Assembly (NCBI GenBank): GCA_030747695.1
Contig: JASLKG010000001.1
Coordinates: 59,361 to 123,360 of the forward strand
DNA length: 64,000 nt
Reading direction: 5' to 3'
Source: Candidatus Poseidoniaceae archaeon
Lineage (GTDB): Archaea; Thermoplasmatota; Poseidoniia; Poseidoniales; Poseidoniaceae
Made by a program: the position numbers and the translations under genes. Under the pieces are notes generated by a model. That model saw only the letters and a list, made by a program, of their open reading frames with translations, did no database searches and was not told the DNA's origin. Numbering within the stretch: position 1 is the stretch's first letter; every line of letters starts with the position of its first letter. This document shows, one piece after another, positions 4,861 through 20,029 of the stretch.

Positions 4861-4994
4861 AGTAATTTCGGAAATAATGCAAGTGTTCTGAAAACGCACT
4901 CTCGCGAGCGCGAGTAAAGGAACCTTCAAAACCCCCCGAGGTACGCTCCCACTTTAGGTTGGAGTCACAGTACTTCGATTGTGAGGGGAAAGGG

Positions 4995-7900
4995 ATGTAT
5001 CTAAAAGCATTGGAAGTTGAAAACTTCAAATCATTCAAGGGAGAAGCAGTAATTCCATTTGATAGGGGATTTACTGCAATCACAGGGCCAAACGGATCCG
5101 GCAAATCCAATTGTGGAGATGCAGTTCAGTTTGTATTAGGTGCAAGGTCTGCGAAGGTACTACGTGCTCAAAACTCTAAGGATTTAATCTTCAATGGAGG
5201 TAAATCAAACCGTCCAGCTAGGAATGCAAAAGTTACCCTTGTTTTTGCTAACCCTCAACTCAAAAACGGTAGAAGGAGATTACCAGTAGACACAGACGAA
5301 GTCAGAATGACTAGGGAAGTACGTTTAACGAAAGGAGGAAACATCGTTTCTTCATACCACCTCAACGGAGAAGAGAGTGGCCAGAAAGCATTCCATCGAA
5401 TATTAGGTAAGGCTAACGCAAGACCAGATGGCTACAATATTGTTCTACAAGGAGATGTAACTAGACTTTCTCAAATGACGGCAATGGAACGCCGTAGAGT
5501 TTTAGATTCTGTAGCAGGAGTTACTTCGTACGATGAGGAAATACGTAAAGCCGATCGACAGAGAAACCAAGTTGAAGAATACATTGATAGAATTTCATTG
5601 GTAGAAGATGAACAAAAGGCTCGTCTTAAAACATTAGAAAAAGAGAAGGCAGCAGCTGAGAGGGCAAAGGACGCAAAAGAAGAATTCGATAATGCGAATA
5701 TAATACTCCATCAAGCAAAGCATCAAAGCGCAAAGGCAGAATTGAAACATCATGCTGATGAAAGAACAAGATACCTTTCTGAAGCTGCTGAACTGGAAGC
5801 CTCAGTCAAAGAATCAGAAAAAGTACTTCTTGCACTTGATGACAAAGTTGGTGAGTTAGAAACTAGGATTGCTGAGGCTATGGGTGGAGATTCCGGTGGC
5901 TTGCTTGAACAAATTAGAGAACTACAAGTTTCAATAGCAGTAAATGGTGACAAGATAGAAGAGGCAAAGGATCTTCAAAATGATGATCAATTACTTTTGG
6001 ATGAACTGGAGCAAGAGATTACAAAAGCCAAAGAGGATTTACAGGAGCATGAAATCTCTCTTGTAGATGCGAAAAAAGCCCTTGAAGAATCGAAAGAAGC
6101 ATTGAAACAATGCGAAGCAGTGGAAAAAGAGATTCAAGATTCCTTGGAGAATTCTGGTGCTGCAAATGCTGCACTTTCGCGAGCCGCTTCAAAGGCAAAT
6201 GAAAAATTAGAACAATGCAGAGAAGCGGTTAATACTGCTAAGGTGGAAGCAGAAAAAATTGCAAATCAAGCAGAAATGATCGCTGAACAATTGTCAGCCG
6301 CCGAAGAAGAAGTAGACGATGCTCAACTTTCATATGATGATCTTGAATTACAAGGCGAAGAGTTAGGCAATATCAATCCAGATAGTGATCGTACAGCACT
6401 TGCAAATGAATTGAGGGCGGCCCAGAAAGCAGAGGAGAAACTGATAGATGAATCTGCAATAGTCCAAAAGCGCCTTCAAGAAGCAGAAAGATCACTTGTA
6501 AGTTCGAGAATGGAAATGGAAAAACGTTCTGGCAACAATGGCATGGCACCTGGTGCTGCTGCTGTAATGGCTGCAAGAGACCGTGGCGAGTTAAGTGGGA
6601 TCATTGGAACAATTAGTGAATTATGTGCTCCAATTGACCAATCACATGGCGATGCACTTGCAACTGCTGTGGGTGGGGCAATGAGTTCTATCGTTGTGGA
6701 AACCGATCAAGTTGCTGCAGAAGCTATGGCATTATTAAAATCCAAAAATGCAGGAAGGGCAACTTTCCTTCCTTTGAACAAGATGCAAACAAACCGTTCA
6801 AGCGGCAAAGCTGCAATGGTTGCAAGAAAACCAGGGGTTATCGGCTTTGCACATGAATTGTTGAACTACGATCCAAGAATAGAAGTTGCAGTAGCATATG
6901 CTTTGAGAAATACACTTGTTGTTGACAATCTCTCAACAGCACGTCGCTTGATGGGAGGTGTTAGACTTGTCACACTTGGAGGGGAAATCACTGAACCAGG
7001 AGGTGCAATGGTTGGTGGAAGTAAAGCGAGAATGAAGGTTGGCTTTGGCGGCAAAATCCAAGGTGCTAGTGCAGTTGAGAAACTTGTTGCTGAAGTAGAC
7101 AGATTGTCATTGATGGCAGAAACGGTTTCAGCAGCATTGCAAGAGGCTAGAACTAAGCAAAATGAGATCAGAGGTAAGATTAACTCCATAGCAGAAGATG
7201 ATAATTCTGTCAAATCAATGCAATGGAAGGCGGAATTAGAAGTCGCCTCTAAAACTCTTACCAAGGCAAAAGGTTCTACTGCTCAATTTGAAAAACGCCT
7301 TTCAGATCTTGAATCAGAACATAAAGGCAAAGTTGTTTTGTTAGAGGATGCAAAAAAGGAGTTAGTAGAAGCAGAATCACTCAGAGATAATGCCATATTA
7401 GAATTACAAGAAGCAAGCCCAGAGGGAATAAGAACACGCTTACTGGAAGCACAAACACTTCGTTTAAACGCAGAATCAGAATCTACTAGGTCACAGTTAG
7501 TAATCAACAGTGGAGCAGATAAGACTGGCTTGCTATCTGAAAGACTCGAATCACAAACAACTAGGGCCGATAACATCCAAGCTACAATGGCTGGCAGAGA
7601 GAAATCAGTCAAAGAGTGGAAAGAATCTATCGGCAATGAATCAATTGAATTAAAGATAAAGGAAGATGAAAGAGCTGTTTTACTAGATGCACATCAGGAT
7701 TTAGAAAATGAGAGAACCGAATTGGTTGATGAAAGAGCAGAATTGAGGGCAGCAGCCGCACAAAGAGCAACTTCAGCAATCAACTCAAGATCAATGGCTG
7801 AGGAAATCACCCGTTCACTTGCGATAAAGGAACAAGCACTTGCTGATTTATTAGTTGAAATGGCTGAGGCAGAAATTCCTGTTGCAGATGATTTGATAGA

Positions 7901-8879
7901 ATTGCCAACTGTTGGTGATGCAGAACGTAAAACTAGGGATTTGCAGAGGAAATTAGACAAGTTCGGTCCAGTAAATATGCTCGCAATTGAGCAATATGCT
8001 GCATGTAAAGAGAGATTAGATGAAATGAAATCAGATTTCAAGATATTACAACAACGTCGTAAGAAACTAGTAGATATTACAGACAAACTTGAGGGTCAAA
8101 GAAAATCGAGATTGGTAGCAACTCTAAAAGATGTCAATGCGAATTTCGAAATAGTGTATAAACGCCTTTCAGGTGGAGGAAGAGGTGAATTATTCCTTGA
8201 GAATCCAGATGAACCATTCAAAGGAGGGCTTGATATGTGGGCGCAACCTTATGGCAAGTCGAATAAATCAAGATTACAAGGATTATCTGGTGGGGAGAAA
8301 TCTATGGCATCACTTGCCTTGATCTTCGCAATACAAGATTATGATCCTAGTCCATTCTACTACTTTGATGAAGTCGATCAAAATCTAGATGTATCAAATT
8401 CAAAACTGATTGCGAATGAATGTAGGAATCGCAGCCAAGCGGCACAATTCATTATGGTTACACTACGCAAAGTTTCACTTGAACTAGCCGATCATCACAT
8501 AGGCATTACACATGGAGGAGATGGGTGCTCTCGTAGAATTGTTGATTTCGATAGAGAAAGAGCTATTGCACTTGGAGAAAAGGCAGAAAAGCAAGCAAGG
8601 AAAGCGCAAGAAAAGGTATCTTCAAGAATCGAAGAAGCAAGAATAAGCGATGAAAATATGCCTGAAGTCCCAGAACCCCTTGAAGCTCCAAAGAGCCTCG
8701 GAGGTTTGCTGCAGCACTTAGATGAAGAACACGAAGAATCTAGTGATGAAAGTAGTTTCTCGGCAATTGCAGATAGGGCAGAAGATTTGTCCGAAGAAAT
8801 AGCAGAACGTCAAGCCATAGTTAGTGAGTTACTAGAAGAGAGCGAACAGGTGGATGTAGAGGCTGAAAAGGAGGCTTGA
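4995..8879 (+). CDS. smc: chromosome segregation protein SMC
   Basis: MYLKALEVENFKSF start, Walker A GPNGSGKSN, Q-loop VLQGDV, hinge GRATFLPL and GGAMVGG, signature LSGGEKS, Walker B YYFDEVD, long coiled coils. Confidence 0.97.
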   Translation: MYLKALEVENFKSFKGEAVIPFDRGFTAITGPNGSGKSNCGDAVQFVLGARSAKVLRAQNSKDLIFNGGKSNRPARNAKVTLVFANPQLKNGRRRLPVDTDEVRMTREVRLTKGGNIVSSYHLNGEESGQKAFHRILGKANARPDGYNIVLQGDVTRLSQMTAMERRRVLDSVAGVTSYDEEIRKADRQRNQVEEYIDRISLVEDEQKARLKTLEKEKAAAERAKDAKEEFDNANIILHQAKHQSAKAELKHHADERTRYLSEAAELEASVKESEKVLLALDDKVGELETRIAEAMGGDSGGLLEQIRELQVSIAVNGDKIEEAKDLQNDDQLLLDELEQEITKAKEDLQEHEISLVDAKKALEESKEALKQCEAVEKEIQDSLENSGAANAALSRAASKANEKLEQCREAVNTAKVEAEKIANQAEMIAEQLSAAEEEVDDAQLSYDDLELQGEELGNINPDSDRTALANELRAAQKAEEKLIDESAIVQKRLQEAERSLVSSRMEMEKRSGNNGMAPGAAAVMAARDRGELSGIIGTISELCAPIDQSHGDALATAVGGAMSSIVVETDQVAAEAMALLKSKNAGRATFLPLNKMQTNRSSGKAAMVARKPGVIGFAHELLNYDPRIEVAVAYALRNTLVVDNLSTARRLMGGVRLVTLGGEITEPGGAMVGGSKARMKVGFGGKIQGASAVEKLVAEVDRLSLMAETVSAALQEARTKQNEIRGKINSIAEDDNSVKSMQWKAELEVASKTLTKAKGSTAQFEKRLSDLESEHKGKVVLLEDAKKELVEAESLRDNAILELQEASPEGIRTRLLEAQTLRLNAESESTRSQLVINSGADKTGLLSERLESQTTRADNIQATMAGREKSVKEWKESIGNESIELKIKEDERAVLLDAHQDLENERTELVDERAELRAAAAQRATSAINSRSMAEEITRSLAIKEQALADLLVEMAEAEIPVADDLIELPTVGDAERKTRDLQRKLDKFGPVNMLAIEQYAACKERLDEMKSDFKILQQRRKKLVDITDKLEGQRKSRLVATLKDVNANFEIVYKRLSGGGRGELFLENPDEPFKGGLDMWAQPYGKSNKSRLQGLSGGEKSMASLALIFAIQDYDPSPFYYFDEVDQNLDVSNSKLIANECRNRSQAAQFIMVTLRKVSLELADHHIGITHGGDGCSRRIVDFDRERAIALGEKAEKQARKAQEKVSSRIEEARISDENMPEVPEPLEAPKSLGGLLQHLDEEHEESSDESSFSAIADRAEDLSEEIAERQAIVSELLEESEQVDVEAEKEA

Positions 8880-10018
8880 ATATGCAGCAGGCCGTATTGG
8901 ATAATTGGTTTCTACGCCAGGACATCATGGACCAATTGATGGGACGAGATGAGGATGTTATGGAGGCTGAGCGTTATGCGAATAGAATTATCTCAATTGC
9001 ACAAGAAGATAGTGCTGAACACCAAGTATTAACTGATCCATTTGACCGTTCAGTTGCCTTGGTCCTTTCTTTGGTAAGGGAAGAAGGAATGGATCCGTGG
9101 AACATTGATCTTTCTGCTTTCCTCAAAATTTTTACCCAACGTGTACGTAAAGAATCAGATAAACTAGATTTACCTGCATGTGGTAGATTGATAAGAATGT
9201 CTTGGGAGGTACTGAATTCCCAAGCAGAGAACTTGTTTGATAGAGTTACTGCTATAGATTTTGATGATGAAATGGATTTCATGGATTTTGGTTGGGAGTC
9301 TGAATATGATGACGATGAATTCGTATTTACTACTACAGTCTTAGAAGGATCAGCAGATTCCGTATTACCTTCTTTGTTCGGAGAGAGATTACGTAGAGAT
9401 GAAGGCCGTCCTTCAACATTAGGAGAATTGTTGTCAGCACTGAAGGATGCTTGTGATGAAGCAGAAGTGTTGAAGGCAAAAGAAGAGAATCGTAAGTTAC
9501 ATGCTGAAGAATTAAAGAATATGCTAGCAAATGTTGGTTCGAGAATGCATAATGAGGATTTAGAAGCCGACATCGAACGCTGTTGGAATGCGATGCGTTC
9601 AGTCACTGAACTGAAAGGCGAGTCAAAGGTTCCTGTATCAGATGTAACTGAAGCATTGAATAAGAAATTAATCGAAATTTACGGAGAAGTACCAGAAGGA
9701 TATGTCCTAGAATCAAAAATAACATCTTTCGTCGCAGGATTATTCCTCACTCACAGAGGTTATGCTTCCGTAACACAAGATGGGCCCGAAGATCCAATAA
9801 TGCTAGAAGATAAATGGCCAAATACAGCGACATTTGGAGAAGTAAAGACTCTTGCAAAAGCTTTGATGGATGAAGATTCGAATGCTATTAAGGATGATGA
9901 AACAGAATCAATGAGGCATGCTGCCAGATTAGCAGAACGTGCTAGGTTGGCAGCGGAAGAAGAAGAATTGAATAGGCTTGCACAATCTGAGGATCCTGAG
10001 GATTGGTTAGTGGAGTAA
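8876..10018 (+). CDS. scpA: segregation and condensation protein A (kleisin)
   Basis: Overlaps the smc stop. Has the ScpA N-terminal motif MDPWNIDL and TLGELLSALK, and lies between smc and scpB. Start codon uncertain (TTG 8876 or ATG 8882). Confidence 0.85.
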   Translation: MNMQQAVLDNWFLRQDIMDQLMGRDEDVMEAERYANRIISIAQEDSAEHQVLTDPFDRSVALVLSLVREEGMDPWNIDLSAFLKIFTQRVRKESDKLDLPACGRLIRMSWEVLNSQAENLFDRVTAIDFDDEMDFMDFGWESEYDDDEFVFTTTVLEGSADSVLPSLFGERLRRDEGRPSTLGELLSALKDACDEAEVLKAKEENRKLHAEELKNMLANVGSRMHNEDLEADIERCWNAMRSVTELKGESKVPVSDVTEALNKKLIEIYGEVPEGYVLESKITSFVAGLFLTHRGYASVTQDGPEDPIMLEDKWPNTATFGEVKTLAKALMDEDSNAIKDDETESMRHAARLAERARLAAEEEELNRLAQSEDPEDWLVE

Positions 10019-10030
10019 GGAGTTGGTTAC

Positions 10031-10636
10031 ATGTCGGAAATACCATTGGAGACTTTACTCGAAGCGACACTGTTTAGTGCGGGCAAATCATTATCTTTAG
10101 ACGAGTTATCAGAGTCATTGGGATATGAAGTAGAAGAAATTTCAGAATCAATCTCAACGTTACAATCTACTTTGAAGCGTAGAAGAGGAGGAGGATTACA
10201 AATTGTTGAGATTGGCGGGCGATGGGCAATGGAAGTTAAACCATTGATTGCAGATTTAATGCCAAAGGAAACAAAATCCGAATTACCACAAAAATTGTTG
10301 AAGGCTGCATCACTAATTGCATACCATCAGCCTATGCCACAATCACGTTTGGTCGAACTACTTGGCCAAAGAGCATATGATCACATCAGAGAACTTGCTC
10401 AAGCAGGGCTTATTCAAAGAAGGAGAGATGGAAACACGCGTCGTTTGACAACAACTCGTAGATTTTCGGAAGTATTTGGATGCCCCCATACAGATCGCAA
10501 AAAAGTCAAAGCATGGTTTAGAGAAATGGTTCTATCTAGCGGTATAATGGACGGTATGGATGGTAAATTAGCTTTGAGGGATGAAACTGAAGAAGGCGGT
10601 GTACAAACAACTCTAGATATTAAGCAAGAAGAGTAA
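10031..10636 (+). CDS. scpB: segregation and condensation protein B
   Basis: LEATLFSAGKSL, IAYHQP, tandem wHTH, TTRRFSEVFG (cf. TTxxFLxYFG). Confidence 0.93.
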   Translation: MSEIPLETLLEATLFSAGKSLSLDELSESLGYEVEEISESISTLQSTLKRRRGGGLQIVEIGGRWAMEVKPLIADLMPKETKSELPQKLLKAASLIAYHQPMPQSRLVELLGQRAYDHIRELAQAGLIQRRRDGNTRRLTTTRRFSEVFGCPHTDRKKVKAWFREMVLSSGIMDGMDGKLALRDETEEGGVQTTLDIKQEE

Positions 10637-11935
10637 TTATTTCCTTAAATTATTCAGAGCGTCTTTTACTAATTGTTGAGTTATTGGCCCATTTTGGGAT
10701 TGTACCATCTTTGCAACAGCCTCTATTTCCCCGCCAATAGCTCCTGCGCTAACAGCCATATTTCGTGTATGAAGCTTCATATGGCCCGATTGTATTCCAT
10801 TCGTGGCCAAAGCACGCATTGCTCCTAAATTTTGCGCTAATCCCGCTGCAGCCATTACTCCACTTAATTCAACAGCGCTCTCTACTCCTAATATTGCAAG
10901 ATTTGCTTTGGCTGCTGGGTGAACTTTGGATGCACCTCCTACTATACCTACTGCGATTGGAGTTTCTAATTTGCCAACTAAATTACCAGCACTATCTTTC
11001 TTCCATGTGGTCATAGACGTGTATCTGCCGTTAGAATGACTCGCCCATGCATGACAACCTGCTTCAATTGCCCTCCAATCCTGGCCACAAGCTAAAGCAA
11101 TGGAACTAATTGCATTCATTATACCTTTATTGTGTGTAGCGGCACGATATGGGTCGTTTGCAGCAAAATTGTATGCTTCAATAATCGAATCAATAATCAA
11201 TTCTCCATTTGTGCCATCATCATTATCAGATAATTCTCCAGGTGTAAATGTGGCTTCGACTCGTGCCAAACGGTGTGCTGCTAAGTTGGAAAGGATCCTA
11301 AGGTTAACTCGGCCACCCGTAATTTCCTCCACTTTCCCACTAACCAATTCAGACATTGTGTTTACTGCATTAGCTCCCATTGCATCACGTGTATCAACTA
11401 TAATGTGTAAGATAAGCATCTTACCAGTACTCGTCTCTATGATTCTAGTTTCAATGTCCTTGCACCCTCCTCCGAGTTTAATCATAGTCGAGGAAGGCAA
11501 AGAGTTGCAAATTGCGATCAATTCATCTTTATGTTCATGAAGTAAATTCGAGGCAGTATCCATATCATCCAAATCCAAGATTTGCAATTGGCCAATCATG
11601 ATAGGTTTGTCGCAATTAGTCCTAAATCCACCCTTAATTAAGCAACGCTTAGCCATATTTGAAGAAGCAGCAATAATACTTGACTCTTCAACACAGAATG
11701 GCACTAAGTAATGCTTTTCGTCAATCATAAAATTTGTAGCGACGCCTACTGGTAGCGACATAGTTCCAATGACATTTTCAATCATACGATTAGCTGAGGC
11801 TTCATCTAATTCTCCATGTGCTTTTAGCGCCTCGACGTGCTCTGGAGATAAATTGGCTAATTCGGCTACGATGTTCCGTCTTTCCTCCACAGAGAGTTTG
11901 AAGAACCCTTTGAGCCGACTATTTTCCACTGACAT
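10637..11935 (-). CDS. mvaA: hydroxymethylglutaryl-CoA reductase, class II (bacterial/degradative type)
   Basis: ENVIG, DAMGAN, ILSNL, RAATHNKGIMN, GLAQNLGAMRAL, GIQSGHMKLH. Confidence 0.93.
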   Translation of the reverse strand: MSVENSRLKGFFKLSVEERRNIVAELANLSPEHVEALKAHGELDEASANRMIENVIGTMSLPVGVATNFMIDEKHYLVPFCVEESSIIAASSNMAKRCLIKGGFRTNCDKPIMIGQLQILDLDDMDTASNLLHEHKDELIAICNSLPSSTMIKLGGGCKDIETRIIETSTGKMLILHIIVDTRDAMGANAVNTMSELVSGKVEEITGGRVNLRILSNLAAHRLARVEATFTPGELSDNDDGTNGELIIDSIIEAYNFAANDPYRAATHNKGIMNAISSIALACGQDWRAIEAGCHAWASHSNGRYTSMTTWKKDSAGNLVGKLETPIAVGIVGGASKVHPAAKANLAILGVESAVELSGVMAAAGLAQNLGAMRALATNGIQSGHMKLHTRNMAVSAGAIGGEIEAVAKMVQSQNGPITQQLVKDALNNLRK

Positions 11936-11993
11936 AATCCGGCTCCTCTATCTGTGAGGGGGATGGTTATGCCTCATGAATAAATCGACTGAT

Positions 11994-12085
11994 TAACGCT
12001 TTATTAACGCGTTAGGAATTAGTTAACTAAGCGTTATCTGCGAAAATAAATCCCTTATGGGCAATCTTTCAACGTGTACTAACGC
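11994..12085. repeat. cluster of TAACGC/GCGTTA hexamers and two perfect palindromes in a divergent intergenic region
   Basis: TAACGC at 11994, 12005 and 12080; GCGTTA at 12009 and 12031. Palindromes TAACGCGTTA (12005-12014) and TTAGTTAACTAA (12019-12030). Confidence 0.75.
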
Positions 12086-12145
12086 ACCAATTTTGTATGT
12101 CAATTCACTGAAACATCATATACTGTTGAGGTCCCATTGCCTATC

Positions 12146-13693
12146 ATGGGTTTAGATGATCCAATTCTAGGAATACCAGCAATTAGAGATAATCCGTTTC
12201 AAGCAAGGCCCTTAGAATCCGGCCAATCTGATTTGTTAGTTGGCAGAGGTGAGATCTCTGGGCGTTGGATTCGATTCTTAAATCAGAAGAATGCACGAAT
12301 GGTTTTACTTGTTGGGGAAAGCGGTTCTGGACGGACTTCATTGATGAGGTGCGTATCAGAAGAATCAGGCAAACACGTGCACCTTGATATGTTTCCGAGT
12401 ACAAATCATGTACGTTCTATACTTGAAGAAATACATGTTTCTCTAGTAGATTTTGATATACCTTCTTCAAATCAAGAGTTAGTTGGAAGGTTGGTTAATG
12501 CGACAAACAATGCAGATGGCCCATTGGCATTGATATCACTTGATTTTTCAAGTGCTGATGGCAAGTTACTATCTGAAGTAACCTCTAGCCTAATCTCTGC
12601 ATTAGAACGTCTTGAAGCTTTAGTAGTGATTACTTTAACAACAGATCAAAGGGTCCAGTGGCCAGAGACATTAATACAGAAATTCGATCATCTTGAAGTA
12701 TTGCATCCCCTAAGTGGTGAAGAAGTTAAAGAATTATGTGAATCAAGAATGGCAACAGTATCCAGAACGGGATGGGTAGTGCCAGAAGATGTAATTGATC
12801 ATCTTCTTGAAAAGACAAGTGGGATGCCAATGAGGGTCATGAGAACAATGAGAGATATGGTTGACTATGAAAGAAGTAACCCCCGGGATGTAAAATTTGA
12901 AAACGACTCATCCAACATAATAGAAGAATCTCATGAAGAAGAAATTGTAGATACAATGGAGTCACAATCCAATGATGAGGAAACTGATAACGATAATCAA
13001 TTCGATTTCGATTTAGAGGTTCTTGAAAAGGAACCCCCTGGTATCACTGTTTCAAGTAATGAAATAAGGGTTAGAGGTCCTTTTGGAGGATTGGCTTCAA
13101 GAAATAGAACTTATGCTAGGAAGAATCCAAAACCAAATTTCACAAGTCATAATCAAGCAGAAGTTAGTGGCCCTCAGAATGAATTGTGGATGGCAGAAGG
13201 TAGTGAACCTGCTATTGTTCAACAAATTAGCGAAACATATGATGAACCCGTGTTCGTTCCTGAAGAAGTGGAGATTGATGAAGATCCAATCAAAGAAATC
13301 AATACTAATGAAGTTGAAGACTTCTTAAATCAGTTAAAGAAAGTAGCCTCATTGCCTCAGGGTATGACTTTAGCAGACTTACTTTCTGCAATGAGGAGGC
13401 CAATTATTGGTAATAAGTCAAGTAATGCATTGGACGTACAAACATTGAGGAATTTGTCTAAATCAGAAGCAGTAATTGTAGAAGTTTCTTCAGAGAGAGA
13501 GTTGTCACCCTCAGATAATAGATTACAAGATCGTTTAGGAATCAAAAGACCAAGAATGTCACAAATATGTAACCGCCTTTACCGAGCAGGAATCCTTTCA
13601 GTACAACAAAAAGGAAGAATTCGATTTTTCAAACTGACAAATGATGCTAAGGCGCAACTTGTAGCATGGGGAATGATGGAGGTGACAGTATGA
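12146..13693 (+). CDS. P-loop AAA+-like protein (degenerate Walker motifs) with acidic linker and C-terminal MarR/ArsR-like winged helix
   Basis: N-terminal NPFxxxPL..LLVGR, Walker A GESGSGRTS, Walker B region LISLDF. C-terminal LGIKRPRMSQICNRLYRAGILSVQQKGRIRFFKLT is wHTH-like. Confidence 0.75.
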   Translation: MGLDDPILGIPAIRDNPFQARPLESGQSDLLVGRGEISGRWIRFLNQKNARMVLLVGESGSGRTSLMRCVSEESGKHVHLDMFPSTNHVRSILEEIHVSLVDFDIPSSNQELVGRLVNATNNADGPLALISLDFSSADGKLLSEVTSSLISALERLEALVVITLTTDQRVQWPETLIQKFDHLEVLHPLSGEEVKELCESRMATVSRTGWVVPEDVIDHLLEKTSGMPMRVMRTMRDMVDYERSNPRDVKFENDSSNIIEESHEEEIVDTMESQSNDEETDNDNQFDFDLEVLEKEPPGITVSSNEIRVRGPFGGLASRNRTYARKNPKPNFTSHNQAEVSGPQNELWMAEGSEPAIVQQISETYDEPVFVPEEVEIDEDPIKEINTNEVEDFLNQLKKVASLPQGMTLADLLSAMRRPIIGNKSSNALDVQTLRNLSKSEAVIVEVSSERELSPSDNRLQDRLGIKRPRMSQICNRLYRAGILSVQQKGRIRFFKLTNDAKAQLVAWGMMEVTV

Positions 13694-14724
13694 GCTGGTC
13701 AGTTTCACATTCATGGCAATCTCCATCGATAATATCAACCATCTGTTCTGTTGGTGAAGATTTGTTGGTTGCTTATGGTTTAGAAGTTGAACTCCTTGAC
13801 TCAGAAGGAAGAACACGATGGAGAAAGTCATTACCATTCAAAATACATGCTGCAACATATGACAGTGGGAAAATTGGTATTTTGTGTGGGCATGGATTCC
13901 ATATTTTGAATGCATCAGATGGAAAGCAATTAGGTGAAGGAAGATCCACAGATGGTGGTTTTAGTGACATAATGAAGAGACCAGGTGGAGGGTGGATACT
14001 TTCCTGCAGAGAGGGTTATTTGCATATTTTCAATGGAGAAGGTCGAGGACTAAAAAGACTTGACAGCGGAGGCGTTAGAAGATTGGTTGGATGGTTCGAT
14101 AGAGAACATTTACTATGGCAAGATCAGGATGGTAAATTACGATGTGCAAGATTGGCCAATAATGACTCTCAGCGTTTGTTGGAAGATAGAATATGGTCAT
14201 GGGTTAGCCGTATGTCCGGCGGTAGAATCCTATTACAGTCAGCAGATGGAATGCTTTGGGAAGGAACCCCTCACCCATATGGGTGGGATGGTATTGAAAC
14301 AGTAGACACGCGTTCATTGGAACCTCTTGCTGCACATAGGGCTGGAGATGGATGGTGGGTTCTTTCCATAGAAGGAGAATTACATAACATGTCTAATGTC
14401 AACGATCAAGATGGAGATGTGGCAAATTCTAACTTAGGTGATATGTTAATTGGCCTTGCTGCTGATAAGATTGTTACTGCGAAACGAGATGGATTGGTGA
14501 GATTTTGGCAATCGCCAGAATTGGCAAACTTAAGACGTGTTGAAATTCAAATGAAAGTAGCTGAAGTTCAGATGGCAAGTGATTGGGAAGAAAGAAGACG
14601 AATCTTCCAAAGGGCGTGTGTTGCTGAAGATGAAGGACGTATTTCATTAGCGATTGAGCTATATGAATCATTAGGCCGCAGTTCAGATGTTAATCGATTA
14701 TTAGCGAAACAGAGAGGTGATTGA
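13690..14724 (+). CDS. hypothetical beta-propeller-like protein with C-terminal helical (TPR-like) segment
   Basis: ATGA overlap with the upstream stop, preceded by GGAGGTG. Repeated Trp/Gly beta-rich units (DGLVRFW, EGYLHIF); ends AIELYESLGRSSDVNRL. Confidence 0.6.
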   Translation: MSWSVSHSWQSPSIISTICSVGEDLLVAYGLEVELLDSEGRTRWRKSLPFKIHAATYDSGKIGILCGHGFHILNASDGKQLGEGRSTDGGFSDIMKRPGGGWILSCREGYLHIFNGEGRGLKRLDSGGVRRLVGWFDREHLLWQDQDGKLRCARLANNDSQRLLEDRIWSWVSRMSGGRILLQSADGMLWEGTPHPYGWDGIETVDTRSLEPLAAHRAGDGWWVLSIEGELHNMSNVNDQDGDVANSNLGDMLIGLAADKIVTAKRDGLVRFWQSPELANLRRVEIQMKVAEVQMASDWEERRRIFQRACVAEDEGRISLAIELYESLGRSSDVNRLLAKQRGD

Positions 14725-15022
14725 AATTCAATTAAGCGACAAGATATCTGAAGAAAAACTCATTCATTATATCGGTCTGACGAAGAAAGCGAGAGAAAAA
14801 GCCACTCCTATACACGAAGAGGGCACGACTGAAGCATCACAATTAGCAGTCATGTTACGTATGGCTGATGATTATGCAAATGATGCGATTCATTTTATGA
14901 ATAATGGTGATTTTGTTCGATCTTTTGGAGCAATAAATTATGCTCATGCATGGATTGATGCAGGTGTCAAATTACGTTTGTTAGATGGACACGGTGATGA
15001 TGTTTTGTTCACACTTCCTTAG
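14717..15022 (+). CDS. DUF357 family protein
   Basis: MADDYANDAIHF..GDFVRSFGAINYAHAWIDAG matches the archaeal DUF357 pattern. Confidence 0.85.
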   Translation: MIEIQLSDKISEEKLIHYIGLTKKAREKATPIHEEGTTEASQLAVMLRMADDYANDAIHFMNNGDFVRSFGAINYAHAWIDAGVKLRLLDGHGDDVLFTLP

Positions 15023-15027
15023 ATTGA

Positions 15028-15390
15028 TTATCCAACAAATTTGAGGTGTGATCTACCACTAACTTCAATCCATTCTAATCCTTCAACAGAGAGACGTTTT
15101 TTTAATTCAGTATCAACAGTCAATATAGGCCAATTATTATTTTTTGAAATATCAATCAATTGATCATCCGTGTGGTTGCCAGAATGTTTTGAAACATCAA
15201 TCAATTCTGCTTTTTGAATTAGCATATCTAATAACAGTCCTTTTCGATCTAGTGCTTCAAGCTCTTGTATTACCTTGGAGGTTGTTGCTAATTGATTGTA
15301 ACCACAAATTTGTATCAGTGATTGATCGATATTTATTCCAGCATCAATCACTGCGACCCAACCACAAGCATCGATCAGTACTTTCTTCAT
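15028..15390 (-). CDS. PIN-domain protein (Fcf1/Utp24-like)
   Basis: VLIDA, VIQEL, HTDDQL and LTVDTELKKR acidic PIN motifs. Conserved archaeal position after eIF2-gamma. Confidence 0.8.
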   Translation of the reverse strand: MKKVLIDACGWVAVIDAGINIDQSLIQICGYNQLATTSKVIQELEALDRKGLLLDMLIQKAELIDVSKHSGNHTDDQLIDISKNNNWPILTVDTELKKRLSVEGLEWIEVSGRSHLKFVG

Positions 15391-15395
15391 ATCGA

Positions 15396-16634
15396 TCACT
15401 CGATAGTACCATGTCCAATCAATCTCCAACGAGAGCCCACTCTACGAGATAATGAGATTCTTTGTGTAGAATCAGCACATATTGGTAGTTTGAGATTAAG
15501 TGTGGCTTTTCCCTTTCCTGTGGCAGAAACAGTACCTACACTTGTTGCAGTTGCAACATTAACCATCAGCATTTCTCCAGGTCTTAGTGGCATTATTGGC
15601 ATTGGTTCTTCTCCTTCTCCAGCAACCATATTTTCCAATAGATGAATTGAGATATTTACTTTGTCACGAACTTCAGGAAGATCACCAACTCTTGCAACGA
15701 CCTGGCCTGATAGATTATCAGAAGTAGTTACTGATGGATCAAGTGGAGTTGCCATGCCGCAAAGTCCACCTGCATGCATATTTTCAAGCGATAATCCTCC
15801 TCCTTGCATCGAGACTACCTTGGAATTTATTGGTTCATAGCGAACTTTGTTACCTTTCTGGATTTTCCTTCCTGGCCCAATTATGATGTCATCACCAATA
15901 TTGAATTCGCCTTCAATGATACTTCCTCCAATCACTCCTCCACGTAATTTGCTTGGGCGAGTACCCGGTTTGTTGATGTCAAAAGATCTAGCTACATGCA
16001 TTATTGCTCTCTTATCATCGGATCTATCCGGAGTCGGGATGGTATCTTCAATTGCATGTATAAGAATGTCTAAGTTCACATCATGATGAGCAGAAACAGG
16101 AATTATTGGTGCTTTTTCAGCAATTGTATCGTTAATGAAATTCTTTATTTCATTGTAAGATTCCAATGCTCTTTCTCTACTAACCAAATCTATTTTATTT
16201 TGGACAATCACTATATTTTCTATTCCCGCAATTTCCAAAGCCATCAAATGTTCTCTTGTTTGAGGTTGAGGGCATGTTTCGTTGGCAGCTACCATTAACA
16301 TAGCTCCATCCATAATTGATGCACCAGTAATCATAATTGCCATCAATGTCTCGTGACCAGGAGCATCTACAAATGAAATTACACGTTGTAGTTCCTTATC
16401 CTTATCTTTACCCCCATCAGGACGACGACCTGTAGCATAATATTCGCCATCTGAAGTTTTGTAAAAAGCAGTATCGGCATATCCTAGTTTTATTGAGATT
16501 CCACGCTTTCTTTCTTCAGAGTGAGTATCAGTCCACACACCTGAAAGGGCTTGAGTTAGAGTTGTTTTACCATGGTCAACGTGACCTACTAATCCAATAT
16601 TGACTTCGGGTTGAGCGGGAAGCGTTCTAACCAT
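15396..16634 (-). CDS. eif2g: translation initiation factor 2 gamma subunit
   Basis: QPEVNIGLVGHVDHGKTT, RGISIKLGYAD, DAPGHE, PQPQTREH, NKID, WRLIGHG. Confidence 0.97.
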   Translation of the reverse strand: MVRTLPAQPEVNIGLVGHVDHGKTTLTQALSGVWTDTHSEERKRGISIKLGYADTAFYKTSDGEYYATGRRPDGGKDKDKELQRVISFVDAPGHETLMAIMITGASIMDGAMLMVAANETCPQPQTREHLMALEIAGIENIVIVQNKIDLVSRERALESYNEIKNFINDTIAEKAPIIPVSAHHDVNLDILIHAIEDTIPTPDRSDDKRAIMHVARSFDINKPGTRPSKLRGGVIGGSIIEGEFNIGDDIIIGPGRKIQKGNKVRYEPINSKVVSMQGGGLSLENMHAGGLCGMATPLDPSVTTSDNLSGQVVARVGDLPEVRDKVNISIHLLENMVAGEGEEPMPIMPLRPGEMLMVNVATATSVGTVSATGKGKATLNLKLPICADSTQRISLSRRVGSRWRLIGHGTIE

Positions 16635-16674
16635 GCTCCCCATTCCTCCCAAGTAAAAGATCAGCCTCGCGGCT

Positions 16675-17157
16675 TCACTCAGTGCTCTCCTCTGAATCAC
16701 TTGCAAGAATATCTGCAAGACTCTTGTTAGCAGCTTCAATTACTTTCAGATTAATCTGCCTAGTATCTTGAGAAATTGTATTACCTCTGAAGAATCTACG
16801 TTTACGCATCCCATCAGGTTTGTATCTGAAACGCCTCTTTTCTCCACCTTTTGTTTTGTGAACTAAATCATGTCCTTTGAAACCAGTAGAAGCAGTTACT
16901 AGAACAGATTGTCTTGAGCCACCTTGTAAATCAGACCTCATTGGAGTTCCAGTTTTGTCAGACCCTCCAGTAATCTCAAGTTTATATCCAGCGAGAGTTT
17001 TGTCTCCTTCCCCTACAAAGATTCCATCAATCATATCACCAATCTTCTTTCCTAGAAATTGTGACATGTTATTTCCACTGATTGAAGTATTGTATGAATG
17101 ACCGCCATTTTTTGAATCAGTGTCATTTACCACTGCGATGAATGTAGTGTCAGCCAT
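16675..17157 (-). CDS. rps6e: 30S ribosomal protein S6e
   Basis: FLGKKIGD, YKLEITGGSDKTGTPMR, GMRKRR..RGNTIS, QINLKV. Confidence 0.95.
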   Translation of the reverse strand: MADTTFIAVVNDTDSKNGGHSYNTSISGNNMSQFLGKKIGDMIDGIFVGEGDKTLAGYKLEITGGSDKTGTPMRSDLQGGSRQSVLVTASTGFKGHDLVHKTKGGEKRRFRYKPDGMRKRRFFRGNTISQDTRQINLKVIEAANKSLADILASDSEESTE

Positions 17158-17229
17158 AGTATCAACCCTTAGAGCAAGTTGGCGACATAGGTCGGGTATA
17201 TAGGCCCACCGACTACCAAAATTGGCAAA

Positions 17230-18414
17230 TTATCGTCGCAGTCTTGCAGGAATAAGGGTTTCAAGACGTCTTGAAACATCACTAGGTAACATATGCGGCA
17301 TAGAAATGTGCTGTGTTCTTCCCCTTCCATCATCCAACTGATCAGTTCTTGTTTCAATGATCTGATTTTGCATCATACGTTTGATATGTTTCCAAATAGT
17401 CGTATGCCCTTTTGGAGATTGATTATATTCTTCACATACCACTTGGTAGAGCTTTGAAGCCTCACCACTTGTGACAAATTCTTGTCGTTTCAATCTTCTA
17501 CAAATTCCCAATAGAAGTAACATACAATGTACTGGAAGACCTTCAATATCCAAAGAGTCGACATTTGAGGGCAATGTAACAACAGTACTCTGTACATCTT
17601 CTGGAAGAATTTGGCTTCTTCCTGAAACTTCAGCTCTTTTTGCTGCACCTTCTATCAATTCAATTACTTGTCTTGCGTCACCAGAAGGTGCCGCTGCCTG
17701 AGATGCCAATTTGATAATTTCTTCAGTAAAAGATCCTTTCACTAAACCAATATCAGATCGTTGCATTGCAATTTCAAAAAGACCCGCTTCATCATATTTT
17801 TTCATACGTAAATGATTAGTCCTACCCATCCTAGAAATAACTGCATTTTCTAAGAGATCTAGAACTTGCTCTTGTGAAATCATGATTAGGGAAAGAGTTC
17901 CTCTGCGGGCAGTATCTTCGTCTATACGTAGCAATCTATAGATTAGATCGTCACCAGATTTACGTAATAGGTGATCGACTTCATCTAGAACTACAATTAA
18001 ATGAGAATTATCACTTGACATCATTCTTCTGAGCGATGTTAGCAGTTCACTAACCCCCAACCCTCTATCAGGATGACCGGGGTCTAAATCTTGGATAATC
18101 TTTTGAATCGCTCGAGATGAAGTTGAAGCATTTCTGCAGTTAACATGTACGCTACGTATGTTTCTCTTGTCTGAAAGATGTTTTACAATGTCTATGCAAA
18201 ATCGCTTTACTAATGCAGTTTTTCCAGAACCAACAGGACCTGTTACAACTGCACGACTTGCTCCATCTTTATGGCCTAAGCCGATGAACATCCCTGCAAG
18301 TTGTTTTTGATCATCATTCCTTCCAACTAATTCGTCGGGTATATAGTCAAAACCAAATATTTCTGGCTGTGAAAGAACCAATCCCGCACCAATGCGGTCT
18401 AAGTAAGAACTCAT
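17230..18414 (-). CDS. cdc6: Orc1/Cdc6 replication initiation protein
   Basis: DYIPDELVGR, Walker A GPVGSGKT, HVNCR, Walker B IVVLDEVD, GDAR sensor, C-terminal WH with GRGRT. Confidence 0.93.
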   Translation of the reverse strand: MSSYLDRIGAGLVLSQPEIFGFDYIPDELVGRNDDQKQLAGMFIGLGHKDGASRAVVTGPVGSGKTALVKRFCIDIVKHLSDKRNIRSVHVNCRNASTSSRAIQKIIQDLDPGHPDRGLGVSELLTSLRRMMSSDNSHLIVVLDEVDHLLRKSGDDLIYRLLRIDEDTARRGTLSLIMISQEQVLDLLENAVISRMGRTNHLRMKKYDEAGLFEIAMQRSDIGLVKGSFTEEIIKLASQAAAPSGDARQVIELIEGAAKRAEVSGRSQILPEDVQSTVVTLPSNVDSLDIEGLPVHCMLLLLGICRRLKRQEFVTSGEASKLYQVVCEEYNQSPKGHTTIWKHIKRMMQNQIIETRTDQLDDGRGRTQHISMPHMLPSDVSRRLETLIPARLRR

Positions 18415-18506
18415 ATCCCTAATTGGTCCTAGTCCACGGTTATTGAAGATAGGGGCTGAAAAATCTTAGTTACTTTAATACAATAATACCCAAAAAAGAA
18501 TTTAGG

Positions 18507-19610
18507 TCATGGTATTTCATCGAATTGATAGCCCGTTTCCCATTTCTTCTCACCTAACGAAACTTCTAATTCAAATGGTGTTACAAGTGGCTTGCCATAT
18601 TTCACGGCATCATCTATTGCAATTCTTGGACATGCAGTATTAACAAAAGCGTCAACTGGATAGAAATCAATTAATTCAGGACCTACATGTTCAAGAGCAA
18701 GTAAATATCCCTTTTTCCCATGTTTTTTCAACAAACGTTTCAGTTTAAGGGCAAGGCTTCTGCGCATTTGGCCCGGTTTTTCTCCAATTAAGATTGCAAA
18801 TGTATCAGCATCTTGAATCGACATAATCAATCCAAAACGTTGACGCAATATCCGTTCAATTCTTTCAAAACTCATTTCTGAGGCTTCATCTGTATAAGGA
18901 TCTAGCATAGCCAATGGCTTCCCTGTATGTAATACTAAACCGATTGGATGGAAGTCGCCGCTTCCAAGGAACATATAATGCCCGATTTCATCATCATCGC
19001 CAGAATAGTTGCATCCTAAAACTTGACCCGGGAATGTCAATCTAGCTCCTCCTACGGGTACTTCAACTTCAAATCCAGCATCTTCCAAATATTTCTTGTA
19101 TTCAAAGATGAGATGTAAATGTTGTATTGATCCAACTAAACCGAGTTTTGTGCCCTTTAGAGGAGATATGCGCCCTACAGCATCTTGAAACCGCTCTTGT
19201 GCTTCTTCCGTACTAAGTGCAATTTCACCTTCATCTAATCTTTCTTTAGCAATAGAGCGATGTTGCTCAAGTATTGGTAACACAGCAGTAATCTCCGGCC
19301 GCCCATCATATGTAACATCAATAAATTGAGTTGGCATTCCTGAATCAATATTCATCTGAGAATGACCCATATGCGCTACTAATTCAACACCCATCATTTT
19401 CATTTTGTCATGTACTAAATCACAAGCACCATAACATGGGTCTGCTGCAAGCACAACTTTAGCACTAGTCCCATCTTCAATTTCATCCATCATTTCCAAA
19501 GCTTGCATCTTCAAGCCTTCAGGAACCTGTAAAGCAATTAGCCGATGGTCATGAGATTTGATTCTCTTAATCAATTCTTCCAGTTGAAAATCATGCCGAT
19601 TTAAATCCAT
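18507..19610 (-). CDS. dph2: diphthamide biosynthesis enzyme Dph2 (2-(3-amino-3-carboxypropyl)histidine synthase)
   Basis: LQVPEGLK and the three Fe-S cysteine motifs CYGACD, GQVLGC and TACPRI; KPGQ. Confidence 0.93.
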   Translation of the reverse strand: MDLNRHDFQLEELIKRIKSHDHRLIALQVPEGLKMQALEMMDEIEDGTSAKVVLAADPCYGACDLVHDKMKMMGVELVAHMGHSQMNIDSGMPTQFIDVTYDGRPEITAVLPILEQHRSIAKERLDEGEIALSTEEAQERFQDAVGRISPLKGTKLGLVGSIQHLHLIFEYKKYLEDAGFEVEVPVGGARLTFPGQVLGCNYSGDDDEIGHYMFLGSGDFHPIGLVLHTGKPLAMLDPYTDEASEMSFERIERILRQRFGLIMSIQDADTFAILIGEKPGQMRRSLALKLKRLLKKHGKKGYLLALEHVGPELIDFYPVDAFVNTACPRIAIDDAVKYGKPLVTPFELEVSLGEKKWETGYQFDEIP

Positions 19611-19627
19611 TTAATCCCAACACTGAA

Positions 19628-20029
19628 TCAATCTTCTGCCAGGAAATCGACATACTCATCTGGATCAAGTAAATTTTCCATGTCGACTTCGTAAGGTCTT
19701 AGAATGATAATCCAACCTAGATCATATGGCGAATCATTAACTAATTCAGGATTAATTTCTACTTCGCCATTTACTTCAACAATTTCTCCCGAAAATGGAG
19801 ATGGAAATGTAAATTTCTCTTCTGCAGTCCATATCGAGAAGAAACTTTGGTCATCATCAACTTCTGTTTCTGCATGTGGTAATATGACTCTCAAAATTTC
19901 TCCTATGTCTGAACTAAGAAAATCGGATATACCGATTACCAATCTGTCTTCCTTTTCTTGGTACCAAAGATGGTCCCTCGAATATTTTCTATTATGCGCA
20001 ATCCCGAATTCCATGACTTCCTCTTCCAT
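19628..20029 (-). CDS. glycine cleavage system H-like protein lacking the lipoyl lysine
   Basis: KYSRDHLW, IGISDF, SPFSGEIVEVN, PELVNDSPYDLGWI. The canonical ESVK is replaced by WTAE. Confidence 0.85.
   Translation of the reverse strand: MEEEVMEFGIAHNRKYSRDHLWYQEKEDRLVIGISDFLSSDIGEILRVILPHAETEVDDDQSFFSIWTAEEKFTFPSPFSGEIVEVNGEVEINPELVNDSPYDLGWIIILRPYEVDMENLLDPDEYVDFLAED

Follow-up and report, generated by a model that had tools for sequence, protein, structure and literature searches.

The locus described here raises the question of what an AAA+ protein with a DNA-binding domain and degenerate catalytic motifs may be doing beside the gene for HMG-CoA reductase (HMGR). Its host belongs to the Marine Group II (MGII) archaea, which are abundant in the surface ocean and uncultured, and in which almost nothing is known of gene regulation. 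The window, as the whole analyzed stretch is called below, comprises 64,000 nt of a Candidatus Poseidoniaceae genome of 1.79 Mb (G000; contig JASLKG010000001.1, positions 59,361-123,360), and coordinates count within it unless another contig or locus is named. At 12146-15022 it carries three overlapping, co-directional open reading frames (ORFs), designated ORF1, ORF2 and ORF3. The original prediction regarded them as an undescribed module made of a degenerate AAA+/winged-helix protein, a beta-propeller and a DUF357 protein, with a role either in chromosome organization or in regulation of the divergent HMGR gene. What is new here is a phased array of RTTAACGC boxes beside an undescribed, probably hydrolysis-dead AAA+/winged-helix protein and HMGR. 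From sequence comparison, we place at about 0.5 the probability that ORF1 is a non-hydrolysing, oligomeric regulator which binds the array and controls both HMGR and its own operon. A literature search returned no description of ORF1, the boxes or the trio; the supplementary tables of MGII pangenome papers, in which the family could appear as a core 'hypothetical', lay outside that search.

A phased array of boxes upstream of ORF1

The intergenic region shared by HMGR and ORF1 holds an array of phased boxes that is unique in the genome and accompanies ORF1 across the order Poseidoniales. Five of the 19 TAACGC occurrences in the window fall within 92 bp (11994-12085), and among the 345 copies in the genome these form the only cluster of at least three per 150 bp. 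The closed 1.6-Mb genome of a Thalassarchaeaceae archaeon, from the other family of the order (G066), likewise has its sole such cluster, of six copies, directly upstream of ORF1. When a box is defined as having at most one mismatch to TTAACGC with AACG intact, every one of the 21 orthologous intergenic regions has 3-9 of them (134 in total), and their consensus is RTTAACGCnTt. For the 20 loci that were fetched, this amounts to 129 boxes in 6,013 bp (21.5/kb) versus 210 in 344,672 bp of flanking sequence (0.61/kb). Of 101 Poseidoniales genomes, 88 contain the tandem pattern TAACGC-N4-7-TAACGC; when the 150 matches listed were assigned by hand, approximately 130 fell within the ~300 bp ahead of ORF1 and 13 at other places, with 7 that could not be assigned. 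In five relatives from the class that lack ORF1, the 450 bp ahead of HMGR contained no box.

The spacing of the boxes is close to one helical turn. Of 58 pairs of same-strand neighbors, 44 are spaced by 9-12 bp, most often by 11 bp (25 pairs), and 5 by 22 bp. Boxes in opposite orientation either overlap as TTAACGCGTTAA-type dyads or stand one turn further apart. The usual layout consists of a main group at approximately -230 to -115 from the ORF1 start and one or two boxes at approximately -100 to -62, the latter just upstream of the conserved TATA-like element of ORF1. Both the core of the box and the recognition helix of ORF1 are near-invariant across the order.

Only one other site in the genome resembles the array, a pair of perfect GTTAACGCTT boxes with a spacing of 11 bp where two convergent genes meet (G000:C6:105189-105206). 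It was considered as a second array and set aside as probably due to chance, having no counterpart among the matches listed in four genomes of the same genus; the tandem-pattern matches listed for those genomes include none outside the ORF1 locus. Tandem boxes at G000 C4:176085 lie inside a gene, have the form GTAACGC and were treated as chance as well.

Distribution and synteny of ORF1

The order Poseidoniales consists of families f1 and f2, while f3 and f4 form the rest of the class. ORF1 was found in 89/89 genomes of f1 and 65/66 of f2, which makes 154 of 155 genomes searched in the order; it was found in none of the 45 others (f3 0/43, f4 0/2). It is single-copy in its own genome. Matches of an N-domain profile in five outgroup genomes were examined as possible sister-lineage orthologues and rejected, as they end at or shortly past the P-loop (best E 5.6e-4).

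Gene order was compared across 20 genera, each represented by one locus. HMGR divergently adjoins ORF1 in all 20, and the DUF357 gene (ORF3) comes after ORF1 or ORF2 in all 20, with ORF2 in between in 14. At 18 loci scpAB adjoins HMGR, and smc-scpA-scpB then lies one gene from ORF1. The cdc6 gene is 3-5 kb away throughout and is preceded in the window by a gap of 92 bp. Synteny across the order extends over the whole 15-kb region. Three loci (L041, L046 and L049, from genera g10, g15 and g18) have the PIN-aIF2gamma-S6e-Cdc6 block inverted, with Cdc6 directly after DUF357 on the same strand and with breakpoints that spare the HMGR-ORF1-ORF2-DUF357 unit. In G066, a 3-kb insertion splits DUF357 from the PIN gene.

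Degenerate catalytic motifs in the AAA+ domain

The two motifs that first drew attention to ORF1, a Walker A of GESGSGRTS (residues 57-65) and a Walker B of LISLDF (residues 129-134), are present as described and are degenerate family-wide. Among 21 sequences from 21 genera, G57, G62, S65 and the Walker B aspartate D133 are invariant. The position of the Walker A lysine holds Arg in 19 of them and Lys in 2, and the residue following D133 may be F, Y, T, A, V, L or H, never E or D. The same holds in wider samples. Across 120 homologue clusters, among the matches listed, Walker A has R in 98 and K in 14 with 8 unmatched (~88% Arg, ~12% Lys), and E or D follows the Walker B aspartate at 0 of 112 pattern-matched sites. 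For 66 family representatives the corresponding values are R 55, K 7 and unmatched 4, with E or D at 0 of 52 matched sites. The replacement of Lys by Arg is thus predominant but not universal. Orthologues with intact GKT and DE motifs were looked for as well: the Walker B glutamate is never present and Lys occurs in only ~12%.

Other elements of the active site have been kept unevenly. Only 6 of the 21 sequences have R at the position of the arginine finger, as read by eye from the alignment, and the sensor-2 motif G.PR is retained mainly in family f2. Since the residues for binding are kept while those for hydrolysis drift and Lys and Arg exchange freely, the pattern suggests that the AAA+ domain still holds nucleotide or phosphate without turnover.

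Architecture and descent of ORF1

An AlphaFold model of ORF1, built on an alignment of 37 sequences, comprises an AAA+ base and lid (residues 1-245, with a block predicted local distance difference test score, pLDDT, of ~90), a disordered stretch (~249-430) and a confident winged helix (430-513). A long acidic linker followed by a C-terminal winged helix had been proposed from the sequence, and the model bears this out. In an exhaustive VIA search, the top structural match was an archaeal Orc1/Cdc6 on origin DNA (2qby_B, Z 16.4), whose alignment spans 306 residues across model residues 13-514 and covers both domains. Drosophila Cdc6, Aeropyrum ORC2, MuB and TnsC come after it in the list, 1w5s matches at Z 15.4, and Foldseek returned 2qby_A at 1.6e-7. 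The AAA+ plus winged helix architecture thus stands, with archaeal Orc1/Cdc6 as the nearest fold and a broader set of initiator, loader and STAND proteins around it. This likeness covers the AAA+ base, the lid and the C-terminal winged helix, and it would suit a role at a replication origin, as would two helices between beta2 and beta3 of the model, which we take to be the position of the initiator-specific motif.

Sequence profiles point elsewhere. Matches to Pfam and NCBIfam are all sub-threshold for ORF1 and include AAA_16 (1.5e-4), AAA_22 (1.9e-4; 22.2 bits vs a cut-off of 27) and the ExeA-like family TIGR03015 (3.5e-4 over residues 49-233); no Pfam or NCBIfam model exists for the ORF1 family. 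Cdc6_C (PF09079) and Cdc6_lid (PF22703) are absent among the 15 Pfam matches of ORF1 at E<=1. STAND regulators had been suggested as a second precedent for the architecture, and this part found no clear support: nSTAND1 (6e-4; 19.9 bits vs 27.1) and NACHT (12.9 vs 26.7) stay below their cut-offs and, unlike STAND NTPases, ORF1 has no sensor repeats fused to it, the propeller being encoded by a separate gene. For the C-terminal domain, the sub-threshold matches include the BigR/ArsR winged helix-turn-helix (wHTH) model NF040642 (1e-5; 25.5 bits vs 155; residues 434-507) and HTH_metalloreg (20.6 bits vs 55). A profile of this domain searched against the PDB matched ArsR/BigR/HlyU structures (3pqj, 2.8e-5), with 2qby_A at 0.3. 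The likeness of the winged helix to ArsR/SmtB regulators is a similarity at the level of the domain only. Within it, R468, R470, S472, Q473 and N476 are invariant in 37 sequences.

To place the AAA+ domain, 1.84 billion representatives were searched with an N-domain profile made from 21 sequences, and 66 members of the ORF1 family came up at E<=1e-30. The next tier, at 1e-15 to 1e-11, consists of archaeal proteins of 350-390 aa that combine AAA_22, ATPase_2 or AAA_16 with a C-terminal HTH_5, HTH_24 or Penicillinase_R, along with very long multi-AAA proteins matching only around the P-loop. In this tier, two proteins have cluster members that the Joint Genome Institute (JGI) calls 'type II secretory pathway predicted ATPase ExeA', in one case followed by '/predicted transcriptional regulator', and one ExeA-named relative comes from an Asgard metagenome-assembled genome. 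A comparison of ORF1 with one of these ExeA-like proteins, P0327, by hhalign gave 98.7% probability (E 1.7e-16) over 218 columns, versus 49% over only 40 columns around the P-loop for the Cdc6 encoded in the window. Because profile similarity favors the ExeA-like protein over the Cdc6 of the same genome, ORF1 is not an Orc1/Cdc6 paralogue. It is by sequence a derived member of an ExeA-like AAA_22 plus wHTH lineage that has an Orc1/Cdc6-like architecture. Apart from it, the genome encodes two bona fide Cdc6/Orc1 proteins, the first within the window and the second on contig C5.

The compact ExeA-like proteins (~350-390 aa, with an AAA_22 or Arch_ATPase domain; P0327, P0331, P0360, P0369, P0384 and P0388) are the nearest relatives of ORF1 by sequence and, by the searches made here, an uncharacterized family. 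They have in common with ORF1 an NPF...VGR N-terminal motif, an AAA+ core, a lid and a C-terminal winged helix in the same order. They retain GxGKT, hhhhDE, the arginine finger and G.PR, whereas the ORF1 family has lost the glutamate everywhere and the lysine usually. ORF1 proteins differ further by an acidic disordered insert between lid and winged helix, which ranges from ~150 to ~750 aa across lineages and accompanies a family length of 515-1012 aa. Two of the long members, P0254 (1012 aa) and P0245 (816 aa), were considered as fusions of ORF1 with the propeller and rejected, having longer linkers only. Short motifs, GxFGGLxxRNR and LW, are kept in all 19 loci with a readable linker, including those from genomes without ORF2. 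They look like docking motifs for some partner, and their retention does not depend on the propeller. A search for co-loss of linker motifs with the propeller gave no signal; the motif FDLDLD follows family f1 and not ORF2. In G066:C1 (L044 8014-10084), the ORF1 frame stops after 445 aa and the winged helix resumes ~500 bp further on in another frame, which may reflect a genuine split of the gene, a frameshift or a fault in the assembly.

ORF2, ORF3 and the question of a module

A separately encoded propeller directly downstream of ORF1 had been predicted, and it is found in 14 of the 20 loci. The model of ORF2 (pLDDT 90.8) shows a 27-strand propeller (residues 4-274) followed by one long and two short helices (276-341). 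Foldseek returned generic BamB and WD40 propellers (E ~1e-12, 10-17% identity), and no Pfam or NCBIfam family matched. The most conserved part of the protein is its C-terminal helical hairpin. No homologues were found outside MGII-type sequences, and no fused forms turned up among longer proteins, although this counts as weak evidence. ORF2 is present in 74/74 genomes of f1, 2/2 of f5 and 21/74 of f2. Searches of 52 genomes from seven small-genome Thalassarchaeaceae genera that keep ORF1 and DUF357 adjacent, closed G066 among them, did not find it.

ORF3 belongs to DUF357 (PF04010; 68.2 bits vs a cut-off of 29.4, 6e-19, 72/73 profile positions). The family is listed among anvi'o's 76 archaeal common (single-copy) genes (PMC12680538). 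It was matched in four named control genomes, all archaea, and its relatives in the PDB, 2pmr and 2oo2, carry no functional name. Three genomes of Marine Group III (MGIII), a sister lineage, have DUF357 away from all of these neighbors; at their loci (L054, L055 and L056, from G005, G031 and G001) the gene lies within ~1.7 kb of a contig end, and in G001 it adjoins the gene for the large subunit of exonuclease VII.

DUF357 stands behind ORF1 or ORF2 at every locus, yet the idea of a three-gene module is weakened, the propeller not having been found in seven genera and DUF357 being a pan-archaeal core gene. The trio is not an obligate module. It resolves into a core gene confined to the lineage (ORF1), a likewise lineage-specific but dispensable candidate for a partner (ORF2) and a universal housekeeping gene (DUF357).

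A proposed regulator of HMG-CoA reductase

For ORF1 to act on HMGR, the following steps are envisaged. ORF1 would be a Poseidoniales-specific, single-copy and sequence-specific DNA-binding protein, whose near-invariant ArsR-like winged helix recognizes the RTTAACGC boxes. Its AAA+ domain, presumably having lost hydrolysis, would serve as a static oligomerization module. Because the boxes lie about one helical turn apart, several ORF1 molecules could assemble on one face of the DNA into a higher-order complex. The complex may then set transcription of HMGR, and with it the supply of mevalonate and isoprenoid lipids, and of the ORF1-ORF2-DUF357 operon. ORF2 could be a lineage-restricted accessory or sensor partner in contact with ORF1, and DUF357 presumably a housekeeping gene that is co-transcribed. 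The suggestion that the divergent HMGR gene is regulated here has gained a conserved, genome-unique array in the shared intergenic region and linkage to HMGR at all 20 loci, though this support is indirect.

Known systems resemble parts of the proposal. Iteron or phased-box systems include DnaA with DnaA boxes and ParR with parC, and the present array resembles them in having short boxes about one helical turn apart, in both orientations, beside the gene of the presumed binder. ORF1 differs from DnaA and ParR in belonging to another protein family, in that its binding and oligomerization are deduced from sequence, and in a nucleotide skew at the locus that speaks against an origin. By sequence it also departs from Orc1/Cdc6 through its ArsR-like winged helix, the missing Cdc6_C and Cdc6_lid matches and the degenerate catalytic motifs. 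Orc1-2 of the Sulfolobales is reported to be a non-initiator Orc1/Cdc6 protein working as a transcription regulator (PMC6061795, PMC9738581), and it may serve as a precedent for an ORC-type regulator.

Several points weigh against a regulator of this kind. The link between ORF1 and the boxes rests on adjacency, co-distribution and joint conservation, and adjacency discriminates weakly because synteny of the whole region is order-wide. Binding of nucleotide by the GSGRTS P-loop is an assumption. ArsR-type domains are usually dimers on palindromes, whereas most of the boxes here are direct repeats. The array abuts the putative HMGR promoter in f1 but lies ~50-60 bp away from it in f2, as read by eye. 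Finally, one genomic target would be unusual for a protein conserved throughout an order.

Alternative explanations

One alternative is that the array is a chromosomal landmark, to which ORF1 binds in order to organize or segregate the chromosome, with effects on HMGR and ORF1 as secondary autoregulation. By analogy, such a complex could be likened to ParR-parC, ParB-parS or SegB and might act in centromere fashion or in loading of SMC, possibly with the neighboring SMC-ScpAB. Consistent with this are the single cluster per genome in two whole genomes and the arrangement of 11-bp phased boxes in two groups around the ORF1 promoter; plasmid parC iterons resemble this layout. ORF1 is also as widespread (154/155 genomes) and, in its own genome, as strictly single-copy as housekeeping factors are, and smc-scpA-scpB is one gene away in 18/20 loci. 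The closest structural counterparts of its AAA+ domain are DNA-bound Orc1/Cdc6, MuB and TnsC, of which MuB and TnsC were solved as filaments on DNA. However, the scpAB link is lost in 2/20 loci while the HMGR link holds in 20/20, the operon has no ParA/SegA-type partner, and the array is short at ~90-130 bp. On balance a centromere-like or SMC-loading role appears unlikely; for chromosome organization in general, one of the two roles first proposed, the evidence tips neither way. A broader form, in which the array and an ATPase-dead, ORC-like binder would make up an MGII-specific landmark complex (centromere-like, SMC-loading or origin-accessory) with HMGR effects as a side function, is unlikely as well.

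A different possibility is that the boxes belong to an unlinked regulator of HMGR. ORF1 would then be a signaling or scaffolding NTPase-like protein that works with the propeller as a split STAND-type sensor, and its winged helix would bind other DNA or a protein. The sub-threshold nSTAND1 and AAA_16 matches and the propeller directly downstream, its start codon overlapping ORF1, could be read in this way, and the tie of ORF1 to the boxes is indirect. Against it, boxes accompany ORF1 in 21/21 loci and occur in 0/5 relatives without ORF1, and ORF1 is the sole gene flanking the array that encodes a DNA-binding protein of sequence-specific type. The joint near-invariance of box core and recognition helix across the order and the dispensability of the propeller (0/52 genomes in seven genera) argue in the same direction. 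An unlinked regulator seems improbable on this evidence.

That the array is a replication origin or an origin-proximal site, with ORF1 as a degenerate initiator-like or accessory factor to the Cdc6 encoded 5 kb away, is very improbable: the fold, a short-repeat array unique in the genome and a cdc6 gene within 3-5 kb in 20/20 loci would fit, but cumulative GC skew on the 241-kb contig C1 keeps climbing without a turn across the locus and has its turning points on other contigs, no AT-rich stretch is conserved beside the boxes (intergenic GC 0.30-0.55), and ORF1 is by sequence an ExeA-like protein.

Some side observations concern replication in these genomes. GC skew in G000 is strongly polarized, being monotonic on most of contigs C1-C9 with turning points on C4, C5 and C9. 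In G066 cumulative GC skew is almost flat and gives no turning point to use for placing an origin. The second Cdc6/Orc1 homologue of G000 (G000:C5:211486-212334; L058 1267-2508, minus strand) is 27% identical to the copy in the window. The gap upstream of it, unusually long at 400 bp (L058 2509-2915), contains a 20-nt inverted repeat whose arms are separated by 153 nt, together with a 16-nt inverted repeat rich in A/T. This gap is a candidate for an origin; on C5 the cumulative GC skew has a turning point ~28 kb away.

Gene layout and neighbors

The coordinates of the features are collected in Table 1. The most likely start of ORF1 is ATG 12146, because homologues align from there; 11936-12145 precedes it and is therefore non-coding, an intergenic control region. 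The three-gene run to 15022 predicted at the outset is thus retained, but its proposed beginning at 11936 marks the end of HMGR rather than part of ORF1. With the TATA-like element so near the start codon, the ORF1 mRNA would be leaderless, as judged from the sequence. Both gene overlaps that had been noted are real by sequence: ATGA at 13690-13693 joins the ORF2 start to the ORF1 stop, with a Shine-Dalgarno-like GGAGGTGA ahead of it, and the ORF2 stop TGA (14722-14724) is overlapped by the GTG of ORF3 at 14717. Terminator-like sites in 11800-15500 numbered 0, versus 2.1 expected from shuffles, and there were no Rfam matches at E<=0.1 in 10000-20000. A scan for bacterial sigma-70 promoters was set aside, not being meaningful for an archaeon.

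Table 1. Coordinates of the features of the HMGR-ORF1 locus within the window
Feature	Position	Strand	Remarks
Five RTTAACGC boxes	11993-11999 (+), 12004-12010 (+), 12009-12015 (-), 12031-12037 (-), 12079-12085 (+)		within 11993..12085
Two degenerate box copies	12023-12029, 12069-12075		
Putative TATA/BRE-like element of HMGR	11979..11991	-	1-2 bp from first box; similar in other f1 loci
Putative promoter-like element of ORF1 (GAAACATCATATAC)	12110..12123	+	~27 nt before ATG 12146; conserved in f1, related form in f2
HMG-CoA reductase gene (HMGR)	10637..11935	-	PF00368 at 2.4e-102; divergent from ORF1; putative regulated target
ORF1, 515 aa	12137/12146-13693	+	AAA+ domain, linker, winged helix
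ORF1, AAA+ domain	12146-12880	+	Walker A 12314-12340, Walker B 12530-12547
ORF1, acidic disordered linker	12881-13432	+	short motifs GxFGGLxxRNR and LW conserved
ORF1, ArsR-like winged helix	13433-13690	+	
ORF2, 344 aa	13690-14724	+	beta-propeller (residues 1-275) and conserved C-terminal three-helix region (276-344)
ORF3, 101 aa, DUF357	14717-15022	+	GTG start overlaps ORF2 stop
SMC	4959-8879		PF02463, PF06470
'ScpA' ORF between SMC and ScpB	8876-10018		label by position only

Among the neighbors named in the original prediction, SMC, ScpB (PF04079), HMGR and Cdc6 (PF09079, PF22703) are supported by Pfam, but ScpA is a positional label: a Pfam scan of this ORF, the presumed kleisin, gave no match at E<=0.1, and it may be a very divergent member of that family. 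Downstream of the trio, and convergent with it, are genes for a PIN_9 protein, aIF2-gamma, S6e, Cdc6 and Dph2.

Implications

The analysis defines an order-wide, single-copy DNA-binding family for which Pfam and NCBIfam hold no model, in a group whose regulation has hardly been described. The RTTAACGC boxes phased at 11 bp constitute a precise candidate operator and, together with ORF1, a sharply testable protein-DNA pair. They also offer a possible point of control over HMG-CoA reductase, the enzyme that stands at the entry to isoprenoid membrane lipids. Beyond this order, ORF1 represents a natural case of an initiator-clade AAA+ domain that is without its hydrolysis residues and has kept its P-loop, and it bears on how AAA+ domains turn into static assembly modules. 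Should the array instead prove to be a centromere or origin landmark, it would open the chromosome biology of the lineage, and the complex would be an archaeal counterpart of the ParB-parS or DnaA-box systems on an ExeA/ORC-type scaffold.

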